The notes under the pieces are model-generated. The model searched no databases and had not been told where the DNA came from. It saw nothing but the letters and a program-made list of their open reading frames with translations. The translations under genes were made by a program, and so were the position numbers. Shown here piece by piece: positions 11,363 to 58,324 of a stretch of DNA of 64,000 nt; the first letter of the stretch is position 1, and every line of letters starts with the position of its first letter. Source of the DNA: Acidobacteriota bacterium (lineage in GTDB: Bacteria > Acidobacteriota > UBA6911 > RPQK01 > JAJDTT01); assembly GCA_965218775.1 (NCBI GenBank), contig CBDCLS010000006.1, forward strand, positions 962,071 through 1,026,070, given 5' to 3'.

Positions 11363-11405
11363 GATCGACTTGGGCCCATGCTCGATGAAGTTTCGGGTCA
11401 GCCCC

Positions 11406-11548
11406 GTCTCCGGCTGCGCCGGATCCTACCTGAAAGAAACTTCAGGTCCGACGTAGCGGTGGTCTCCAGGCCGCCGTCCCGAGCCAAAGGCTCGAAAGAA
11501 ACAGACTTCGGCCTGGAGGCCAAAGCTACGTTCGCCAATGAAGGTTCA
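11406..11548 (+). repeat. Copy 1 of a roughly 150-nt structured dispersed repeat (family C), in the convergent intergenic region
   Basis: Near-identical to the reverse complement of 52462-52620 (e.g. ggtggyctccaggccgccgtcc...gacttcggcctggaggccaaagctac). Contains internal inverted repeats. Confidence 0.7.
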
Positions 11549-12547
11549 GCTTAGCGCCGCTATCCGAGTTCCCGGCTGGTTCTTCAGCGGGACCGGGAGA
11601 TAAACGGTGTCCTGGGTCACTCCGGCTTCTTCCAGACGAGCTGCTATCGACTGAATCTCTTCGTTGGACAGCTTCATGAGCGGCGGACGGACATGGGCGC
11701 TTTCTAGTCGCCCCAGCAAGACCAACGCTTCCTTCATTCGGTTGTGCATATCCAGAAAGGGTTCGCGGTAGAAGGCCCGAACCGTGGGATAGATCATGTC
11801 GTTAATAGCCTGAGCGGTCTTGAGATCCTTTCCCTTGACGGCCCGCACCAAGGCCACATGAAGGTTGGCGATGACGCTGCCGGCACCCGAGAGCAGACCA
11901 TCGCAGCCGAGAACCAGCGAGGCAAGCAGCCAGGCACTGTGGGTTGAGAGCACAGAAACCGGGCGGGTCAGCCCGTGAAGCTCTCGAATGTGTCGTTCGT
12001 GCAGGGCGGGGTCGTTGCACCAATCCTTGATGGCTCGGAGCGTAGGCACTTGCTGGCACAGCTCGATCAGCGTATCGAAGGGATAGCCCAACCCCGACGA
12101 CAGAGGATATTGAAACAGGATCAGGGGTAGCCGGGTGGCATTTGCGATCCGATCGAAGTGCTCCCTGGCCATCTCGGGCCGAAGCTGTCCCCCCCAATTC
12201 ATGCTCCCAGGAGGCAGGATCAAGAGCCCGTCTGCTCCTGCTGTTTCGGCCATACGTGCCAGGCGGCTTGCTTCGAGACTGGAGTCGGCCCAGATTCCCA
12301 CCACAATAGGCAGGGCACCTCCCAACTCGTCGCGGGCCAGGTCTAGAGATCGCTGCTGTTCTTCGAAGCTCAGCGCGTGAACCTCTGAGGCATGACCGTT
12401 GATGGTGATAGCCGCAATTCCCTCTACGCCTGCTAGATCACGAAGATGCGTCCGGTATGCTGTCTGATCGATCTCGAAGCTTGCGTCAAAAGGCATCAGG
12501 CAGGCAGGGATCACCCCTTGTGGGACGAAGTCTTCTGTTCCTGTCAT
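11546..12547 (-). CDS. DapA/DHDPS-family class I aldolase (N-acetylneuraminate lyase / 2-keto-3-deoxy-sugar-acid aldolase-like)
   Basis: 333-aa ORF. The TIM-barrel DapA family signature is shared by dihydrodipicolinate synthase and N-acetylneuraminate lyase. It neighbours a sialidase-like gene, which suggests a catabolic role. Confidence 0.75.
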   Translation of the reverse strand: MTGTEDFVPQGVIPACLMPFDASFEIDQTAYRTHLRDLAGVEGIAAITINGHASEVHALSFEEQQRSLDLARDELGGALPIVVGIWADSSLEASRLARMAETAGADGLLILPPGSMNWGGQLRPEMAREHFDRIANATRLPLILFQYPLSSGLGYPFDTLIELCQQVPTLRAIKDWCNDPALHERHIRELHGLTRPVSVLSTHSAWLLASLVLGCDGLLSGAGSVIANLHVALVRAVKGKDLKTAQAINDMIYPTVRAFYREPFLDMHNRMKEALVLLGRLESAHVRPPLMKLSNEEIQSIAARLEEAGVTQDTVYLPVPLKNQPGTRIAALS

Positions 12548-17391: not shown

Positions 17392-17692
17392 CCATCAACT
17401 CGAGAATTTTCTTAAGGTAAGGCTTCGCTGGAATCGAGACGATACAGATGGTTGCGGTGAGGGTAAAATGGAGGATTTACAAAGGCGAGTGAGTTTTCCA
17501 TCCTCACCGCGCTCCAGTTGCCGCTTAGGTTTTCTCTCCCACAGAACCGCTTCACATCGCCTGTCCGTTGCATGAAGACCTGCTAGGCTTACCCGCCTGA
17601 GTTTCACCTTGTCCCAGAACGAGGCAACCAGAAGGAACGGTTTTTCTATCGACTAGCGAGAGTTCAAGAGGGCCATCCCCGTGCCCGGGGAC

Positions 17693-17817
17693 GAGGAGGG
17701 TCAGGGGGACAGTGGCGCTTCCGTGAGATATAGCCACACACTGGGTCTTTGTTGGAAGGGAGTTTAAGAAAGGAGGCTGCATCTTCTTGCGGCTCCACTG
17801 TCCCCCTGACCTTCCTC
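17693..17817. repeat. Long hairpin: perfect 23-bp inverted repeat (gaggagggtcagggggacagtgg / ccactgtccccctgaccttcctc) around a 79-nt loop
   Basis: Read directly from the sequence. It sits in a roughly 1 kb non-coding stretch after pyc. Confidence 0.8.
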
Positions 17818-17998
17818 TTAACTACACCAGCCGATTCGCCGCCTGTCGCTACAGAGCGCTAGGCAGGCCCACCGAACTTTGAACCCGAGAAGATCTCGTA
17901 ACAACAACACCCGAATCCTTGTGCATAGTAGCACGGTGTGGTGATAGAAAATGGATGGCGGTGAGAGGCCGTAGGGTCCCGAATCAATTCCCACACCC

Positions 17999-18274
17999 CT
18001 AGTACAGCGTTCTGTAAATACCGATACGTTTGTGGCGAGCGCGACGGGTCGAGTTCGCGAAGCGACGCCGAACTCGATGCTTTGTATCTTGGAGGAGGCG
18101 CGACAAAGAAATCGGCGCGTCCCGTCGCCACCCGTAGGGCAGATGCGGGTTGCGGACGATCTCTGTGTGGGTCGTCGTCGAAGATGGCCAAGCATCGTCT
18201 TCCTCCTCCTGCCTTGATCTCGCCTCGCAAACCCCATCTGCAAACGTATCGGTATTTACAGAACGCTGTACTAG
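17999..18274. repeat. MITE-like palindromic element, copy A: 34-bp terminal inverted repeats (ctagtacagcgttctgtaaataccgatacgtttg) with a conserved core
   Basis: Perfect 34-bp terminal inverted repeats. The roughly 95-nt core (gggttgcgg.cgatctctg...tcgtcgtcgaagatggccaagcatcgtcttcctcctcctgccttgatctcgcctcgcaa.cccca) is shared with 39214-39493. Confidence 0.8.
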
Positions 18275-18362
18275 TAGGCAGGAACATGAATACTGCTACG
18301 TTGTGTAAATGGGGCTTGCGAGGCGAGATCGAGGAGGGATTCTACTAGCGACCAATCCCTCA

Positions 18363-34486: not shown

Positions 34487-34644
34487 GGTCTCGCTCCTTG
34501 GGATGAGTTGGCGAAGGCAGAGTATGGACCTGGCTCAATCCGGTTACAAGTGCTGTAAGGAGAGGCGTGGCTCACATTGGATCGTTCTGGGGGAGCTTGA
34601 GGGTGGAATCTGGATGGATTGTGCGAGCGCGGGAAGCGCCGGAC

Positions 34645-34720
34645 GAGTTGTCCGCTCTCTCCTTGGAACTGGGTCTGATATCGCCAACACGTCACGTCGT
34701 TCGCGGCTCTGTCGGACTTG
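34645..34720 (+). repeat. Dispersed roughly 76-nt intergenic repeat, family B, copy 1
   Basis: ctctctccttggaactgggtctgat...cgtcgttcgcggctctgtcggac aligns with copies at 42478-42552 (-), 44543-44620 (+) and 58186-58262 (-). Confidence 0.75.
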
Positions 34721-37948: not shown

Positions 37949-39217
37949 ATGACTGAAGAACAAAAAAAGCTAGGTCGACGAAACTTCATCAAGGCAGTAG
38001 CCACAATTCCACCCGCAGGTGCTCTGGTCTGGAAGGCCTCCTCCATGACGCCGGTCAGGGCGGGGATTATCGGGACCGGCAGCCAGGGACGGGTGTTGAT
38101 GGAAAACGCTCCTCCCAGCCACATCCGAATCTCGGCTGTCTGTGACATTTATCCCAAGAACCTGGAGAAGGGTCTCAAGATCGCTCGCGAACGCTTCGAT
38201 CCCCAAGCGGAAACCTATACGGACTATCGTAAATTGCTGGAGAGAAAAGACCTGGAAGCGGTCTTGATCGCGACCCCTATGTGGCAGCACGAGCCGATGA
38301 CAGTGGATGCCCTGCGGGCGGGAAAGCATACCTTCAGCGAGAAGGCGATGGCCCATAGCATTGAAGGCTGTCGCAGAATGATCGACGCCGCACATTCTGC
38401 CCGCCGGACCCTCCAGGTCGGGCATCATCGAAACTACAACCCCTTGTACCAGGAAGCCTACCAGCTGATAAAGGGCGGAGTGATCGGCGACGTCTATCAT
38501 GTTCGCGCCCTCTGGCACCGAAACAAGAGCTGGAGAAGAAAGCTGCCGAAGGGCGACTTCGATCCCACCCCCTGGGGTTATGACAACCTGGACGAGTACA
38601 AGAACTGGAGACTCTACCGGAAGTTCGGGCACGGACTGATGGGTGAGCTCGGGAGTCACCAGATTCAGGTGGTCAACTGGTTCAGCGGGAGCCTTCCGCA
38701 TTCCGTGTACGGCTCGGGAGGAACCTACCACTACAACGATGACCGGGAAGTCGAAGACCACGTCTATCTGATCTATGAGTATCCAGAGGGGTTGACGTTT
38801 ACCTACTCTTCTATTCAAACCAATGCCTACGACCACTACTACGAACAGTTCATGGGAACCAAAGGGACGATTGTGCTGAGTGGTGAGCGGGAAGCCATGC
38901 TCTTTTCAGAGGGAGGTGAGGCAGCTGCTACCGAACTGGCGGCGGCTCCGATGGGTGAAGGACCCGTCTTGGAGGCCTCGGAGAGTCGCGCCAACAATGC
39001 CGCCGGCTCCAGTGTCGGAGGCACGTCCAGCATGGCCTTGGCGCTGCGCGGCTATCAGAATGAGCTGGCAGGTTTTGGCCGAATCATCCGGCATGGCGCA
39101 GACAATCTGAGCGACGGCCCCATGGCCATGAACGTGGTCATTCCCATGATCAAGGGCAACGAGTCGATCGCTAAGGGCGAGAGGTTGGATATTCCGAAAG
39201 AGCTGTACTGGACCTAG
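37949..39217 (+). CDS. Gfo/Idh/MocA-family oxidoreductase with Tat signal (periplasmic)
   Basis: RRNFIK twin-arginine signal. Rossmann N-terminus (AGIIGTGSQG) and Gfo/Idh/MocA C-terminal domain. The stop codon TAG lies inside the terminus of the downstream MITE-like element. Confidence 0.8.
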   Translation: MTEEQKKLGRRNFIKAVATIPPAGALVWKASSMTPVRAGIIGTGSQGRVLMENAPPSHIRISAVCDIYPKNLEKGLKIARERFDPQAETYTDYRKLLERKDLEAVLIATPMWQHEPMTVDALRAGKHTFSEKAMAHSIEGCRRMIDAAHSARRTLQVGHHRNYNPLYQEAYQLIKGGVIGDVYHVRALWHRNKSWRRKLPKGDFDPTPWGYDNLDEYKNWRLYRKFGHGLMGELGSHQIQVVNWFSGSLPHSVYGSGGTYHYNDDREVEDHVYLIYEYPEGLTFTYSSIQTNAYDHYYEQFMGTKGTIVLSGEREAMLFSEGGEAAATELAAAPMGEGPVLEASESRANNAAGSSVGGTSSMALALRGYQNELAGFGRIIRHGADNLSDGPMAMNVVIPMIKGNESIAKGERLDIPKELYWT

Positions 39218-39493
39218 GAGCCTGTCCGAGTAATGGTCCGGGTTGCGTTACAGGCGCCGTTAGTCCAGATGCGAGGCAGGGCGACGAAGGCGATGCTCGG
39301 CCATCTTCGAGGAGCCAGAACAAAGCAGATGGGCTGACGCCGCCTATAACCCGAAGGGAGAATGGGGGTTGCGGCCGATCTCTGCGTTCGTCGTCGTCGA
39401 AGATGGCCAAGCATCGTCTTCCTCCTCCTGCCTTGATCTCGCCTCGCAAGCCCCATTCTCGCAACCCGGGCCATTACTCGGACAGGCTCCTAG
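39214..39493. repeat. MITE-like palindromic element, copy B (terminal inverted repeat ctaggagcctgtccgagtaatggtccgggttgcg, conserved core shared with 17999-18274)
   Basis: 34-bp terminal inverted repeats. The interior is an imperfect long palindrome. The same termini with no core occur at 56574-56632. Confidence 0.8.
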
Positions 39494-39677
39494 CACGCCT
39501 TGACCTCGACCACCATGACGCGTCCTTAACCCACAATCTCCAGGTTGACAGAGTACTAGTTGTCGCAGGCCGCTAGATCGTAATCGGTCCCAGCCAGACA
39601 CCGGGAGATCCCGAGGCCGATGCCCCTGAGTCCTCCCGTTACCAGGGCCACTTTTCGGGTCCCCAACTTTGTATCCA

Positions 39678-42383: not shown

Positions 42384-42477
42384 GCGGACGTCCAGATGCC
42401 TACTTGGGTTGGGAGCTAGACGGACGGACGTGGTGCGCCAGAAACTCGCGAATTGCAGTATGACGAAGCCGGGTCCG

Positions 42478-42552
42478 GCAGTGCCGCGAACGACTTGGCT
42501 CGTTAGCAAGATGAGGCCCAGTTCCGAGGAGAGAGTCGGACAACAGCACAAC
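42478..42552 (-). repeat. Dispersed roughly 76-nt intergenic repeat, family B, copy 2
   Basis: Its reverse complement aligns with 34645-34720 and 44543-44620. Confidence 0.75.
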
Positions 42553-44430: not shown

Positions 44431-44542
44431 TTTTTCGGCGCAGCCTGCAGACGCGGCGTGCACCCTTTTCTAACGTGGTGATTCTGGAAGATGTGATGGA
44501 AAATCGGTTCAGAGGGAAATCTGTTCGGGGAGCGGGGAGATT

Positions 44543-44620
44543 CCACTGTTGTCCGGCTCTCTCCTCGGCACTGGGACCCATCGTGCTGACTAGTCAAGTC
44601 GTTCGCGGCTCTGTCGGACT
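44543..44620 (+). repeat. Dispersed roughly 76-nt intergenic repeat, family B, copy 3
   Basis: ccactgttgtccggctctctcctcggcactggg...caagtcgttcgcggctctgtcggac. Confidence 0.75.
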
Positions 44621-44640
44621 GCGGTTGTTTCGGGGACTGT

Positions 44641-44675
44641 TCACTGCTCACTGCTCACTGCTCACTGTTCACTCA
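44641..44675. repeat. Heptamer tandem repeat (tcactgc)x3 followed by tcactgt and tcactca
   Basis: Five consecutive 7-nt units directly following the family B repeat copy, upstream of hemE. Confidence 0.8.
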
Positions 44676-44753
44676 GTTTCAGCGAAGAGGGCATCCACGC
44701 TAAGATGTTGCAGTTGTGAGCTTGGCCGGCGCTGGAAACTAGGAGACGGATAC

Positions 44754-51303: not shown

Positions 51304-52461
51304 ATGAAAATTCATGAGTTCCAGAGCAAAGAGATCCTGAAGCGCTTTGGAGTCCCGGTTCCTACCGGACAGATCACACAGAGCGTCGAAGAGGCCTACG
51401 AAATTGCCAAGCGTCTCGGAGGCGTGGTTGCGGTCAAGGCTCAGATCCATGCGGGTGGACGTGGCAAGGGCGGAGGCATCAAGATCGCCCGTTCACCCCA
51501 GGAGGCGGAAGATCATGCGCGTCGCATACTTGGCAGCCGCCTGGTTACGCCGCAGACCGGACCGGCGGGCAGCCTTGTCCGTCAAATCCTGGTTGAAGAA
51601 GGGCTGAACCTGGCCAGCGAGTTCTATCTCGGAATCATCCTCGATCGGGCTGAGAACAAGCCCGTAGTGATGGTCAGTACCGAAGGGGGAGTGGAGATCG
51701 AAGAGGTGGCGAGCAAGACCCCCGAGCTGATATTGAAGGAACATGTCGACCCGGCAGTCGGTCTTCAACCCTTCCAGGGCCGAAATCTCTCCTACGGATT
51801 GGGTCTGGACTCAGCGCTGGCCCGCAAAATGGGCAAGGTCATGACGGCCCTGTATGAGGCCTTTCTCCAGACGGATGCGTCTCTGGTTGAGATTAACCCT
51901 CTGGTTTTCACCGAAGAGGGAGACCTTTACGCCCTCGATGCCAAAATGAACTTCGACGACAATGCCCTCTACCGCCACCCCGAGATTCAGGCGTATCGAG
52001 ATTTTCAGGAGGAGGAGCCTCTTGAGATCCAGGCTTCGCGCTCGAATCTAAACTACATCAAGCTGGACGGAAACGTGGGGTGCATGGTCAACGGAGCAGG
52101 TCTGGCCATGGCCACCATGGACATCATCAAACTGTCGGGGGGCAGCCCCGCCAACTTTCTCGACGTGGGTGGGGGGGCCAGCGTGGACCAGGTCCGAAAC
52201 GCGTTCAAGATCCTGGTCTCGGACGAGAACGTCAAAGCGGTGCTCATCAATATTTTCGGGGGTATCATGCGCTGCGACATCGTGGCGGAGGGCGTCGTTC
52301 AGGCCGCCAGGGACCTGGGAGTCTCGATCCCAGTCGTGGTACGGCTGGAAGGAACCAATGTAGAACAGGGAAGAGAAATTCTCCAGAGCTCGGATCTTGA
52401 GTTTGAGGTTGCGCTGGGAATGGCAGATGCGGCCGAAAAAGTATGTAGGTCGGCGCATTAA
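51304..52461 (+). CDS. sucC: Succinyl-CoA synthetase beta subunit
   Basis: MKIHEFQSKEILKRFGVPVP ATP-grasp N-terminus. The start is the Met at 51304 within a longer ORF. Confidence 0.92.
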   Translation: MKIHEFQSKEILKRFGVPVPTGQITQSVEEAYEIAKRLGGVVAVKAQIHAGGRGKGGGIKIARSPQEAEDHARRILGSRLVTPQTGPAGSLVRQILVEEGLNLASEFYLGIILDRAENKPVVMVSTEGGVEIEEVASKTPELILKEHVDPAVGLQPFQGRNLSYGLGLDSALARKMGKVMTALYEAFLQTDASLVEINPLVFTEEGDLYALDAKMNFDDNALYRHPEIQAYRDFQEEEPLEIQASRSNLNYIKLDGNVGCMVNGAGLAMATMDIIKLSGGSPANFLDVGGGASVDQVRNAFKILVSDENVKAVLINIFGGIMRCDIVAEGVVQAARDLGVSIPVVVRLEGTNVEQGREILQSSDLEFEVALGMADAAEKVCRSAH

Positions 52462-52620
52462 CGTGAAACTCCATTGGCAGAAGTAGCTTTGGCCTCCAGG
52501 CCGAAGTCTTATTCTTCTGAGCCTTTGGCTCGGACGGCGGCCTGGAGGCCACCCCTACGCCGGACCCGAAGTTTCGTTCTCGAATGGGGCAGCACCGCTG
52601 GGGGGACACTAAGCTGAAAC
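52462..52620 (-). repeat. Copy 2 of the roughly 150-nt structured dispersed repeat (family C), inserted in the sucC-sucD spacer
   Basis: Its reverse complement aligns along its length with 11406-11548. Confidence 0.75.
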
Positions 52621-52663
52621 TTCATTTGGGCAAGGGGATGGACCCACTAGCGAGAGGAACAAG

Positions 52664-53996: not shown

Positions 53997-54099
53997 ACCA
54001 AGCAGGGGTCATCTCCGAGTGGAGCGAGAGGTGCTAGAGTCGGTCTGCGCCAAAGCCACGTGTGACCGGCGTCCTGAGTGCAGAGGACGGAGGTGAATC

Positions 54100-54310
54100 C
54101 TGAAAGGATTCCGTATTTCAGCCCAGGGTTTCCGAACCCTGAGTGAACGCCACCGTCCCCGGATTTCAACCCTGAATGGGTTGCGTACAGAAAGGCAAGA
54201 ACTGGGTCAGAACGCAACCCTTACAAGGGTTGATTATTAAGGGGTTGACTCTCTTACCCAGGGTTCGGAAACCCTGGGCTGGAAGACGCAATCCCGTTGG
54301 GATTGACCTC
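54100..54310. repeat. Cluster of five short palindromes built on GGGTT/AACCC
   Basis: The five palindromes are cagggtttccgaaccctg, caaccctgaatgggttg, caacccttacaagggttg, cccagggttcggaaaccctggg and caatcccgttgggattg. They sit in the ndk-downstream spacer. Confidence 0.8.
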
Positions 54311-54420
54311 GATTGGTTTTGATAGAACCCACTTCCCATCCCGCGATCCCAAAGTCGATCTGGTTTCGTCGGTAGTCAGTGCTTCCCTGGGGTCGAGAAC
54401 AGGTTACCTTCAAGCGCTTC

Positions 54421-55596: not shown

Positions 55597-56577
55597 GTGT
55601 CAATGAAGGAACATCTGGATCTTGTTGTTGTGGGTGCTGGCCCTTCGGGCCTGGCCTGTGCGATCGAAGCGAAGAAAAGGAAGCTCAAATTCTGGGTCCT
55701 GGAAAAGGGATGCGTGGTTCACTCGATCTATCGCTATCCTACCAACATGACCTTTTTTACGACGGCGGATCTGCTGGAGGTCGGGGACATTCCCATGATC
55801 GTATCCGCGGCAAAGCCGAGCCGTCTGGACGGGCTCAAGTACTACCGGCGGGTGGTGGAGTACTATGATCTCCCCATCAGGGACTACGAACAGGTGCTTT
55901 CGGTGACAGGAAGGAACGGCGAGTTTCGAGTGCTCAGCAGGGACCGGCTGGATCAGGAGTGCGAGTATTCCTGCAGTAAGATAATTGTAGCCACAGGGTA
56001 TTACGACAATCCGAATCTCCTGGATGTTCCAGGGGAGGACCTGGACAAGGTGAGCCACTACTATTCCGAGGCCCATCCCTATTTCGGCAAGAAGGTTGCC
56101 GTCGTGGGCGGAAACAACTCTGCAGCTGAGTCGGCCCTCGAGCTCTATCGTAGCGGAGCCGAGGTGACCGTGATCCATCGCGGCGAGGCGATGGGAAAGG
56201 CGATCAAGTATTGGGTGCTTCCCGATATCAACAATCGGATCCAGAGGGGAGAGATTCAGGCTCTCTTTTCGAGCCACATCACAGAAATCCGAACTCGGGA
56301 CATTGAAGTGGAAACCCCGGAAGGCATGAAGACGATTGAGAATGACTTTGTCCTGGCGATGACGGGATATCATCCGGATTCAGACTTCCTTCAAAAGATG
56401 GGGATTCAGACCGACCAGGACAACTTTGTTCCCCAGCATAATTCCGAGACCCTGGAGACGAACGTAGAGGGTATCTACCTGGCCGGATCGATTATTTCGG
56501 GAAAAATGACCAATCGAATCTTCATCGAGAATGGCCGTTTCCACGGATCACAGATCTTCCAGCATTGGAACCTCTAG
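55597..56577 (+). CDS. FAD-dependent pyridine-nucleotide-disulfide oxidoreductase, YpdA/thioredoxin-reductase-like
   Basis: Two Rossmann motifs (VVVGAGPSGL; VAVVGGNNSAAE). The stop TAG is provided by the terminus of the palindromic element at 56574. Confidence 0.6.
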   Translation: MSMKEHLDLVVVGAGPSGLACAIEAKKRKLKFWVLEKGCVVHSIYRYPTNMTFFTTADLLEVGDIPMIVSAAKPSRLDGLKYYRRVVEYYDLPIRDYEQVLSVTGRNGEFRVLSRDRLDQECEYSCSKIIVATGYYDNPNLLDVPGEDLDKVSHYYSEAHPYFGKKVAVVGGNNSAAESALELYRSGAEVTVIHRGEAMGKAIKYWVLPDINNRIQRGEIQALFSSHITEIRTRDIEVETPEGMKTIENDFVLAMTGYHPDSDFLQKMGIQTDQDNFVPQHNSETLETNVEGIYLAGSIISGKMTNRIFIENGRFHGSQIFQHWNL

Positions 56578-56632
56578 GAGCCTGTCCGAGTAATGGTGCG
56601 CAACCCACACCGTTACTCGGACAGGCTCCTAG
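56574..56632. repeat. 59-nt palindromic hairpin sharing termini with MITE copy B (ctaggagcctgtccgagtaatggtgcgcaacc / ...ggacaggctcctag); solo termini without core
   Basis: Read directly from the sequence. It lies between the YpdA-like stop and the der start. Confidence 0.8.
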
Positions 56633-57964: not shown

Positions 57965-58001
57965 CCGCCGCAAACGATCGACTTTCATCCCGAACCATTA
58001 G

Positions 58002-58176
58002 CCCGGATTTCTCATCGCCAGTCGTAGCGAGGCGGCGCAAGCGCCGTCCTGGCAAGGCTTGCGACCGAGGTCTCCGCAGTCGTACTCGTGCACTACGTCG
58101 AGGAGGCCGACCGAGCATAACACAGCCAGGGCGGATGATTGCGGCGCCGTAGTAGACTGGCGATGAGAAATGCGGG
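58002..58176. repeat. Imperfect palindromic element bounded by 22-bp inverted repeats (cccggatttctcatcgccagtc / gactggcgatgagaaatgcggg)
   Basis: Read directly from the sequence. It lies downstream of der, directly abutting a family B repeat copy. Confidence 0.7.
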
Positions 58177-58185
58177 TTAGGGATC

Positions 58186-58262
58186 CAACAGAGCCGCGAA
58201 CGACTTGATCTGTTAGCACTATGAGCCCAAGTTCCGAGGAGAGAGCCGGGCAACAGCAGGAT
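58186..58262 (-). repeat. Dispersed roughly 76-nt intergenic repeat, family B, copy 4
   Basis: Its reverse complement aligns with 34645-34720. Confidence 0.75.
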
Positions 58263-58324
58263 CTCGGCTGACCCCGGAAAAGTTTCTTTCGCGAATCATC
58301 TGGCTCGCAGCCGGGGGGGCGGAC

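Follow-up and report, generated by a model that had tools for sequence, protein, structure and literature searches.

How did palindromic elements bounded by CTAG come to be scattered through a stretch of Acidobacteriota DNA, what moved them, and do those that lie on the stop codon of an upstream gene act on that gene? We addressed these questions for the window, meaning the whole stretch of 64,000 nucleotides that was analysed, and for related loci (numbered with the prefix L).

Copies in the window and their target sites

A preliminary description had claimed three elements, at 17999-18274, 39214-39493 and 56574-56632, and all three were recovered at exactly those coordinates; we refer to them as copies A, B and C. 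It had also assigned 34-bp terminal inverted repeats to A and B, with a different repeat sequence in each, and this was confirmed: the 34-nt arms are 100% complementary in A (276 nt) and 97% complementary in B (280 nt). Copy C (59 nt) has B-type termini and folds into a hairpin whose two 25-nt arms are 96% complementary. A fourth copy of the family, in inverted orientation and 5'-truncated, was detected at 18275-18344, with CTAG 18271-18274 common to it and A and its other end at CTAG 18345-18348. Patterns made from the terminal repeats and the core had 2-4 occurrences in the window, whereas shuffled sequence predicts 0-0.17. The features are as follows.

17999..18274, plus strand: copy A, full-length MITE including both CTAGs; a 92%-identical copy lies in locus L052, and the site is empty in L213 and L216
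18000-18001 and 18272-18273: TA duplication of copy A
18002-18032 and 18241-18271: left and right terminal repeats of copy A
About 18033-18134, and 18136-18241: left hairpin module and right hairpin module (shared core) of copy A
18275..18344, minus strand: fourth copy, 5'-truncated, made up of the 3' end of the right module and the terminal-repeat variant GTAGGCAGGAACATGAATACTGCTACGTTGTG; L213 and L216 do not have it at their orthologous sites
39214..39493, plus strand: copy B, full-length MITE including both CTAGs
39215-39216 and 39491-39492: TA duplication of copy B
39217-39247 and 39460-39490: left terminal repeat of copy B (its first 20 nt being the IS1182-family inverted repeat) and right terminal repeat
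39245-39353 and 39355-39462: left and right modules of copy B
39215..39217, plus strand: TAG stop of the Gfo/Idh/MocA gene (37949..39217), composed of the duplicated TA and the first G of copy B
39494..39555, no strand assigned: short repeat unrelated to the family, between CTAG 39490-39493 (common with B) and CTAG 39556-39559; 68 nt including both CTAGs, with copies in L052 and L077
56574..56632, no strand assigned: copy C, minimal hairpin MITE including both CTAGs; empty site in L081
56577-56629: copy C element proper, 53 nt, which with one duplicated TA makes 55 added bases
56575..56577, plus strand: TAG stop of the YpdA-like gene (55597..56577), which predates the insertion

A core of roughly 95 nt had been described as common to A and B. 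Such a core is present (18130-18237 against 39349-39456; 108 nt, 91% identical), but it does not mark the limit of the homology, which spans the entire interior, the left halves being more diverged. Copy C had been taken for a solo hairpin with B termini and no core. The hairpin and the termini stand, but a reading of C as a core-less progenitor does not, because the loop of C, CGCAACCCA, corresponds to the inner part of the right arm of copy B; this shows C to be an internal-deletion derivative. Hairpin elements of 49-69 bp, comparable to copy C, are also present in metagenomes.

The preliminary description had proposed looking for empty sites in relatives, and these were found for C and for A together with the truncated copy. 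In L081 the sequence after a 92%-identical YpdA orthologue reads ...ggaacctCTAGccgggcgcaATG, and the occupied site in the window reads ...ggaacctCTAG(55 nt)ccaggcgctATG. At the site of A and the truncated copy, L213 has GCTAG followed directly by CCACCAATCC and L216 has CATAG followed by the same sequence; the window reads CTAG(A)CTAG(truncated copy)CTAG followed by CGACCAATCC. All of these empty sites fit plain insertion at a (C/A)TAG that was already there. Among the orthologues compared for copy B there was no clean empty site, its right side abutting another repeat and a deletion.

Flanking bases across the family define the target more closely. The A-type element proper has G as its first base and C as its last, and its 3-base flanks are direct repeats (TAA/TAA nine times and TTA/TTA four times, the inverted combination TAA/TTA occurring once). 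A preceding C was found in 21 of 28 A-type copies and a following G in 21 of 28; other copies had CTAG on both sides. Insertion thus takes place either in CTWAG, where TWA is duplicated, or in CTAG, where the duplication is TA. The flanks of B-type elements in metagenomes were CTA..TAG in 21 cases, TTA..TAG in six and CTA..TAA in four, and since the last two combinations occur, TA alone must be duplicated in these elements.

CTAG is scarce in the window: counting both strands there are 84 sites, whereas shuffles that preserve dinucleotide composition predict 145 +/- 10. Each insertion rebuilds CTAG at both ends, so that elements come to be stacked head to tail. Two such clusters are present, one of A with the truncated copy and one of B with the 68-nt repeat, and regeneration of the target at both ends accounts for this clustering.

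Spread, terminal repeats and partner transposase

Further copies outside the window, another check that had been proposed, were plentiful. A census with an 18-nt core pattern, covering one genome per species and giving lower bounds only, returned at least 53 family segments in at least 47 eight-kilobase loci, with five Acidobacteriota MAGs among the matches listed. The 20-mer GGAGCCTGTCCGAGTAATGG, comprising the first 20 nt of the terminal repeat of B and C, had matches in more than 120 metagenome contigs, and BLASTN against plasmids with copy B gave no match. The pyruvate carboxylase of the window is 93% identical to that of one of the MITE-bearing MAGs, which makes an origin of the window from a related Acidobacteriota bacterium very probable; a search for exact-protein records of the window's own genes returned none, and homologues were used for comparisons. 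Flanks of the family loci are unrelated from copy to copy, which excludes a segmental duplication including flanking genes, the alternative that had been raised for these repeats.

Paired B-type ends in metagenomes enclose elements in size classes of 34-69, about 163, 167-202, about 270 and 319-346 bp. Nine further B-ended metagenome elements were 1437-1543 bp long, all nine flanked as C-TA...TA-G and identical in their 20 terminal nt. The one long element that was examined contains a single ORF of 455 aa, which scored 357 bits against NCBIfam NF033551 (IS1182 family; cut-off 270) and also matched Pfam DUF772 and DDE_Tnp_1. Homologues of this transposase, at 47-87% identity by tblastn, were present in the other eight.

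The closest known system is ISMno8 from Methylobacterium nodulans ORS 2060 plasmid pMNOD02 (NC_011887.1). Its curated ends read CTAG, GAGCCTGTCCGAGTAA...TTACTCGGACGGGCTC, CTAG, and its terminal inverted repeat, GGAGCCTGTCCGAGTAA, is identical to the ends of B and C over 17 nt; like B and C, it has CTAG on each side. Together with the long metagenome elements, this comparison of ends shows that B and C carry the terminal inverted repeat of ISMno8-like IS1182-family ISs and are integrated in CTAG with the central TA duplicated. Unlike IS1182-family ISs, B and C are only 53-274 bp long and non-coding, with an unrelated interior whose core has no match in the IS copies; unlike ISMno8, copy A has another terminal repeat. 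An IS1182-family IS with CTAG flanks was found in a MITE-bearing Acidobacteriota MAG (L076 5250-6827), and its repeat, CAGCCTGTCGGACTT, is related but different. The window encodes no IS1182-family transposase, and no IS with the exact B-type repeat was found in about 450 kb of Acidobacteriota DNA plus the window. A-type ends include GTACAGCG..., GTACACTGG... and GTGCTCC..., and among the sequences searched there was no autonomous element with A-type terminal repeats. Since its target is the same kind of palindrome, we infer that copy A was moved by a related transposase.

The ISs adjoining family copies in L052, L001 and L081 were considered as partners and rejected, as they belong to the IS4 family (NF033592) and have unrelated ends (CAGTAGTGTCCCAACGTT). 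At L001 1600-5000, two IS4-family copies lie in tandem with a family MITE before each, the MITE being located in a CTAG inside the IS end (palindrome AACGTTTGGACACTAGTGTCCAAACGTT). The CTAG-targeting MITEs reported in the literature for Haloquadratum and Halobacterium were judged not relevant.

Taken together, the copies in the window are small (59-280 nt) and carry no transposase gene. The arms of the terminal inverted repeats are near-perfect in 37 of 38 aligned copies. Direct flanking repeats (TAA/TAA and TTA/TTA, or TA alone in B-type elements) combine with the empty sites in L081, L213 and L216 to show target-site duplication, and the copies are dispersed among unrelated flanks. The termini, duplications and dispersal bear out the preliminary description of a MITE-like family with CTAG termini. 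For B and C there is in addition a partner with the same terminal repeats, in the form of IS1182-family elements with 17-20 identical terminal bases, and these two copies have every defining feature of a MITE. The family as a whole very probably consists of non-autonomous, hairpin-forming MITEs moved in trans by DDE transposases.

Two other routes of mobilization were weighed against movement in trans by DDE transposases. The IS630 family classically inserts in CTAG with TA duplicated, and an IS630/Tc1-mariner transposase would thus leave the same target signature as the TA duplication within CTAG seen here. However, the full-length elements with identical 17-20 nt ends encode IS1182-family transposases, which already contradicts this reading for B and C, and the A-type subfamilies duplicate 3-bp TWA, unlike IS630; we consider mobilization by such an enzyme hardly tenable. 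The palindromic, intergenic and mosaic character of the elements would also suit REP/BIME repeats handled by RAYT, or IS200/IS605 PATEs. Those classes are without target-site duplications or true terminal inverted repeats, and REPs bear GTAG or CGTC tags (PMC3733652), whereas terminal repeats, TA or TWA duplications, empty sites and a DDE partner are all present here, so that this assignment can be practically dismissed.

The elements resemble several known repeats in part. MITEPsy1 of Pseudomonas syringae is an IS5-family-derived MITE of 100 nt with a CTAG or YTAA target and a reported 4-nt duplication (PMC3189936). It is likewise small and non-coding, with repeats like those of a DDE IS and insertion at a duplicated CTAG-type site, but here TA or TWA alone is duplicated, and the interior consists of hairpin modules of about 105 nt, whereas MITEPsy1 is without a long structured interior. 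Correia/NEMIS, RUP, ERIC and YPAL are intergenic, TA-associated foldback repeats, as are the elements described here, and are co-transcribed into long RNA hairpins (PMC2229807); they differ in sequence, host and partner transposase, and one interior under several exchanged repeats has not been reported for them. IS1272 of Staphylococcus belongs to the same transposase family as the partner of B and C and uses palindromic or stem-loop targets, often just downstream of genes (PMC5678879), a further likeness to the palindromic targets near gene ends in the window. In IS1272 the target hairpin is replaced and there is no duplication, whereas the empty sites here show plain insertion into CTAG with duplication.

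Stop codons under the elements

The Gfo/Idh/MocA ORF (37949..39217) and the YpdA-like ORF (55597..56577) both terminate in the TAG of an element's first CTAG, as had been noted from the sequence. The claim built on this, that the element supplies the stop of the upstream gene, does not hold, since the stop was preserved rather than donated. At ypdA the empty site ggaacctCTAGccgggcgcaATG in L081 already has the TAG stop as part of its CTAG target, and the stop was therefore kept. The Gfo/Idh/MocA orthologues are of equal length (422 aa) and end in TAA at the same codon, followed by a spacer of about 200 nt and a short-chain dehydrogenase gene; copy B therefore neither created nor moved this stop. 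The accompanying suggestion of insertion at the native stop was thus correct at both genes. The stop codon belongs to the target and is preserved by the element.

A simple mechanism accounts for this arrangement. The duplicated bases and the terminal G of the element restore the stop codon of the target. As CTAG and CTWAG hold a stop on both strands, insertion exactly on TAG or TAA is harmless, and intragenic insertions are removed by selection, which accounts for the quarter or more of surviving copies that lie at stop codons. When gene-like ORFs were called conservatively, 9 of 33 copies lay directly at the stop of one, as compared with 36 of 467 (7.7%) unoccupied target sites (odds ratio 4.5, p = 0.0013), and a cruder tally placed 8 of 14 CTAG-type copies at stops. 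The metagenome set, with its short contigs and crude ORF calls, gave 10/58 against 15/135, which is not significant. Orientation relative to the abutting gene is unbiased, with about 8 copies adjoining it at their left end and 7 at their right. For the most part, then, target choice and selection against intragenic insertion have been shown to be a sufficient explanation of the stop bias. The family is a case of target choice mimicking function: a stop-containing palindrome is preferred, and elements come to lie on stops with the gene unharmed.

The position of very stable hairpins directly past stop codons could also mean that they are intrinsic terminators recruited by the host, and a terminator-like role had been suggested for them. 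The proposed fold check did find them 10-14 standard deviations more stable than shuffled sequence (z = -9.8 for A, -14.3 for B and -10.9 for C). However, the sequence gave no support to such a role: the bases following the hairpins (CTAGTAGG, CTAGCACG and CTAGCCAG) contain no T-run of the kind found in intrinsic terminators, and a terminator scan was empty at the hairpins of A, B and C. Moreover, copy C occupies the ypdA-der spacer and ends 9 nt short of the der start; in the empty site the spacer is only 9 nt, the two genes are probably co-expressed, and a strong terminator there would be costly. Relatives differ in which sites are occupied, copies are found in either orientation, and some are away from gene ends. 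We therefore regard recruitment as terminators as very unlikely.

Structured interiors and neighbouring repeats

An end-to-end alignment of 13 B-type homologues (67-96% identity) was used to examine covariation. The consensus fold has an outer stem formed by the terminal repeats and two internal hairpins, with 97% paired cells. Changes on both sides affected 37 of 84 pairs, as compared with 19.6 +/- 2.4 in shuffles (0 of 500 as high) and 9-13 with slid partners. The interior comprises one or two hairpin modules of about 105 nt, short forms having the left module only or the right only, and A-type copies have the same right module together with a diverged left one.

The terminal repeats vary more than this interior, with mean pairwise identities of 0.68 and 0.84, respectively, and in pairs of copies with less than 60% repeat identity the core is still 86% identical. 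At least seven terminal-repeat variants exist, with matched arms in each and with outer and inner parts combined mosaically. Recombination between subfamilies does occur, since a chimeric copy (L028 3986-4347) has the left repeat of one subfamily and the right repeat of another, with 21 arm mismatches. A nested MITE-in-MITE origin of the variable outer repeat gained no support: a search of 862 kb found no solo outer palindromes except the deletion derivative C, plus a few truncated single arms. In a textbook MITE the repeats would be the less variable part, and simple descent from a single IS does not explain the opposite pattern found here. MITEs are a known kind of element; the non-textbook property of this family is a structured, conserved interior under exchanged ends.

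What maintains the structure may be explained in several ways. Template-switch correction of DNA quasi-palindromes can generate compensatory changes with no selection involved, and the covariation may have come about in this manner. It may instead derive from an RNA role. Alternatively, master copies may have been selected for a fold required for mobilization, which would fit the stem-loop recognition reported for IS1272 (PMC5678879). We infer that proliferation is confined to master copies whose hairpins are intact, the structure being needed for mobilization or persistence. If selection does act on the folded nucleic acid, hairpins kept by compensatory change while the repeats are swapped would give new insight into what MITEs need in order to spread.

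A role for the interior as a functional structured RNA or ssDNA module, stabilizing or processing the 3' end of the upstream mRNA or sequestering SD-like sequence, with the repeats as its vehicle, could hold alongside the reading as MITEs. The strong covariation in three helices and the conservation of the interior across exchanged terminal repeats speak for it, as do the conserved unpaired motifs TCGTCGTCG and CTTCCTCCTC in the internal loop of the right module. On the strand as aligned there are more G-U than A-C cells (37 vs 17), and many copies lie directly 3' of stops, where co-transcription is expected. Against this, the orientation of copies relative to genes is balanced, conservation is about the same in paired as in unpaired columns (0.83 vs 0.78), and template-switch correction could produce the compensatory changes in the absence of selection. 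At gathering score, Rfam 15 placed no family at the elements, the only matches in the window being two tRNAs; relaxing the limit to E = 5 brought up nothing but plant miRNA hairpin models, far below threshold at 24-30 bits against cut-offs of 74-200. Terminator motifs are missing, as described above, and the three element regions contain no promoter-like sites. On balance such a function is unlikely. A fuller version, in which the interior is a selected structured RNA or ssDNA module with a pyrimidine-rich loop (TCGTCGTCG / CTTCCTCCTC) that has moved among at least seven repeat sets with two duplication lengths, as a structured passenger recruiting different transposases and acting in cis on mRNA, is tentative and would be somewhat surprising.

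Coding potential was ruled out for the short ORFs conserved between copies, which had been suspected to be artefacts of the repeat: after the SD-like AGGAGG-ATG, which lies on the other strand, frame and peptide differ among homologues. The elements do create spurious ORFs and are in this respect an annotation hazard.

In this uncultured Acidobacteriota lineage the intergenic DNA is filled by the family together with at least four further repeat families found in the window, and at one site elements are associated with the loss of a gene. Copy B and the 68-nt repeat replace about 870 bp of the orthologues in L086-L091, comprising the spacer and most of the short-chain dehydrogenase gene. A remnant of this gene persists in the window as its first ~35 codons (VALVTGGLRGIGLG..., minus strand, 39561-39677), homology resuming at 39561-39564. 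In one strain the dehydrogenase gene deleted in the window is interrupted by a gene for a 578-aa DDE_Tnp_1 transposase (L090 12033-13769), and mobile elements seem to have hit this gene more than once.

Other repeats in the window were observed in passing. At 57996-58185 there is a MITE-like repeat of about 190 bp that ends in 25-nt terminal repeats and is flanked by TTA on each side; the MITE-bearing Acidobacteriota MAGs contain six copies of it (81-92% identity), of which one adjoins a family copy in L037. Another repeat family is represented by two inverted copies 41 kb apart (11384-11560 and 52450-52629), with 8-9 copies in the related loci examined. A four-copy family (34641-34716, 42463-42551, 44508-44683 and 58182-58317), common to the MAGs, contains AAGTCCGACAG, a sequence similar to the end of the L076 IS1182-family IS, and its copy at 44640-44680 has ACTGTTCACTGCTCACTG repeats like those beside the IS4-family IS in L081. 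The hairpin repeat at 54060-54317 has 55-nt arms that are 84% complementary, with partial copies in L014, L036 and L039, and in L086 the Gfo/Idh/MocA gene is followed downstream by a similar motif. A stretch of about 600 nt (17410-17987) separates the pyruvate carboxylase gene from the Lcl_C gene in the window and also in L216, but is absent from L213 and L215, where the gap is 22-117 nt; it includes a hairpin with 43-nt arms at 17693-17817 and is probably yet another inserted element.
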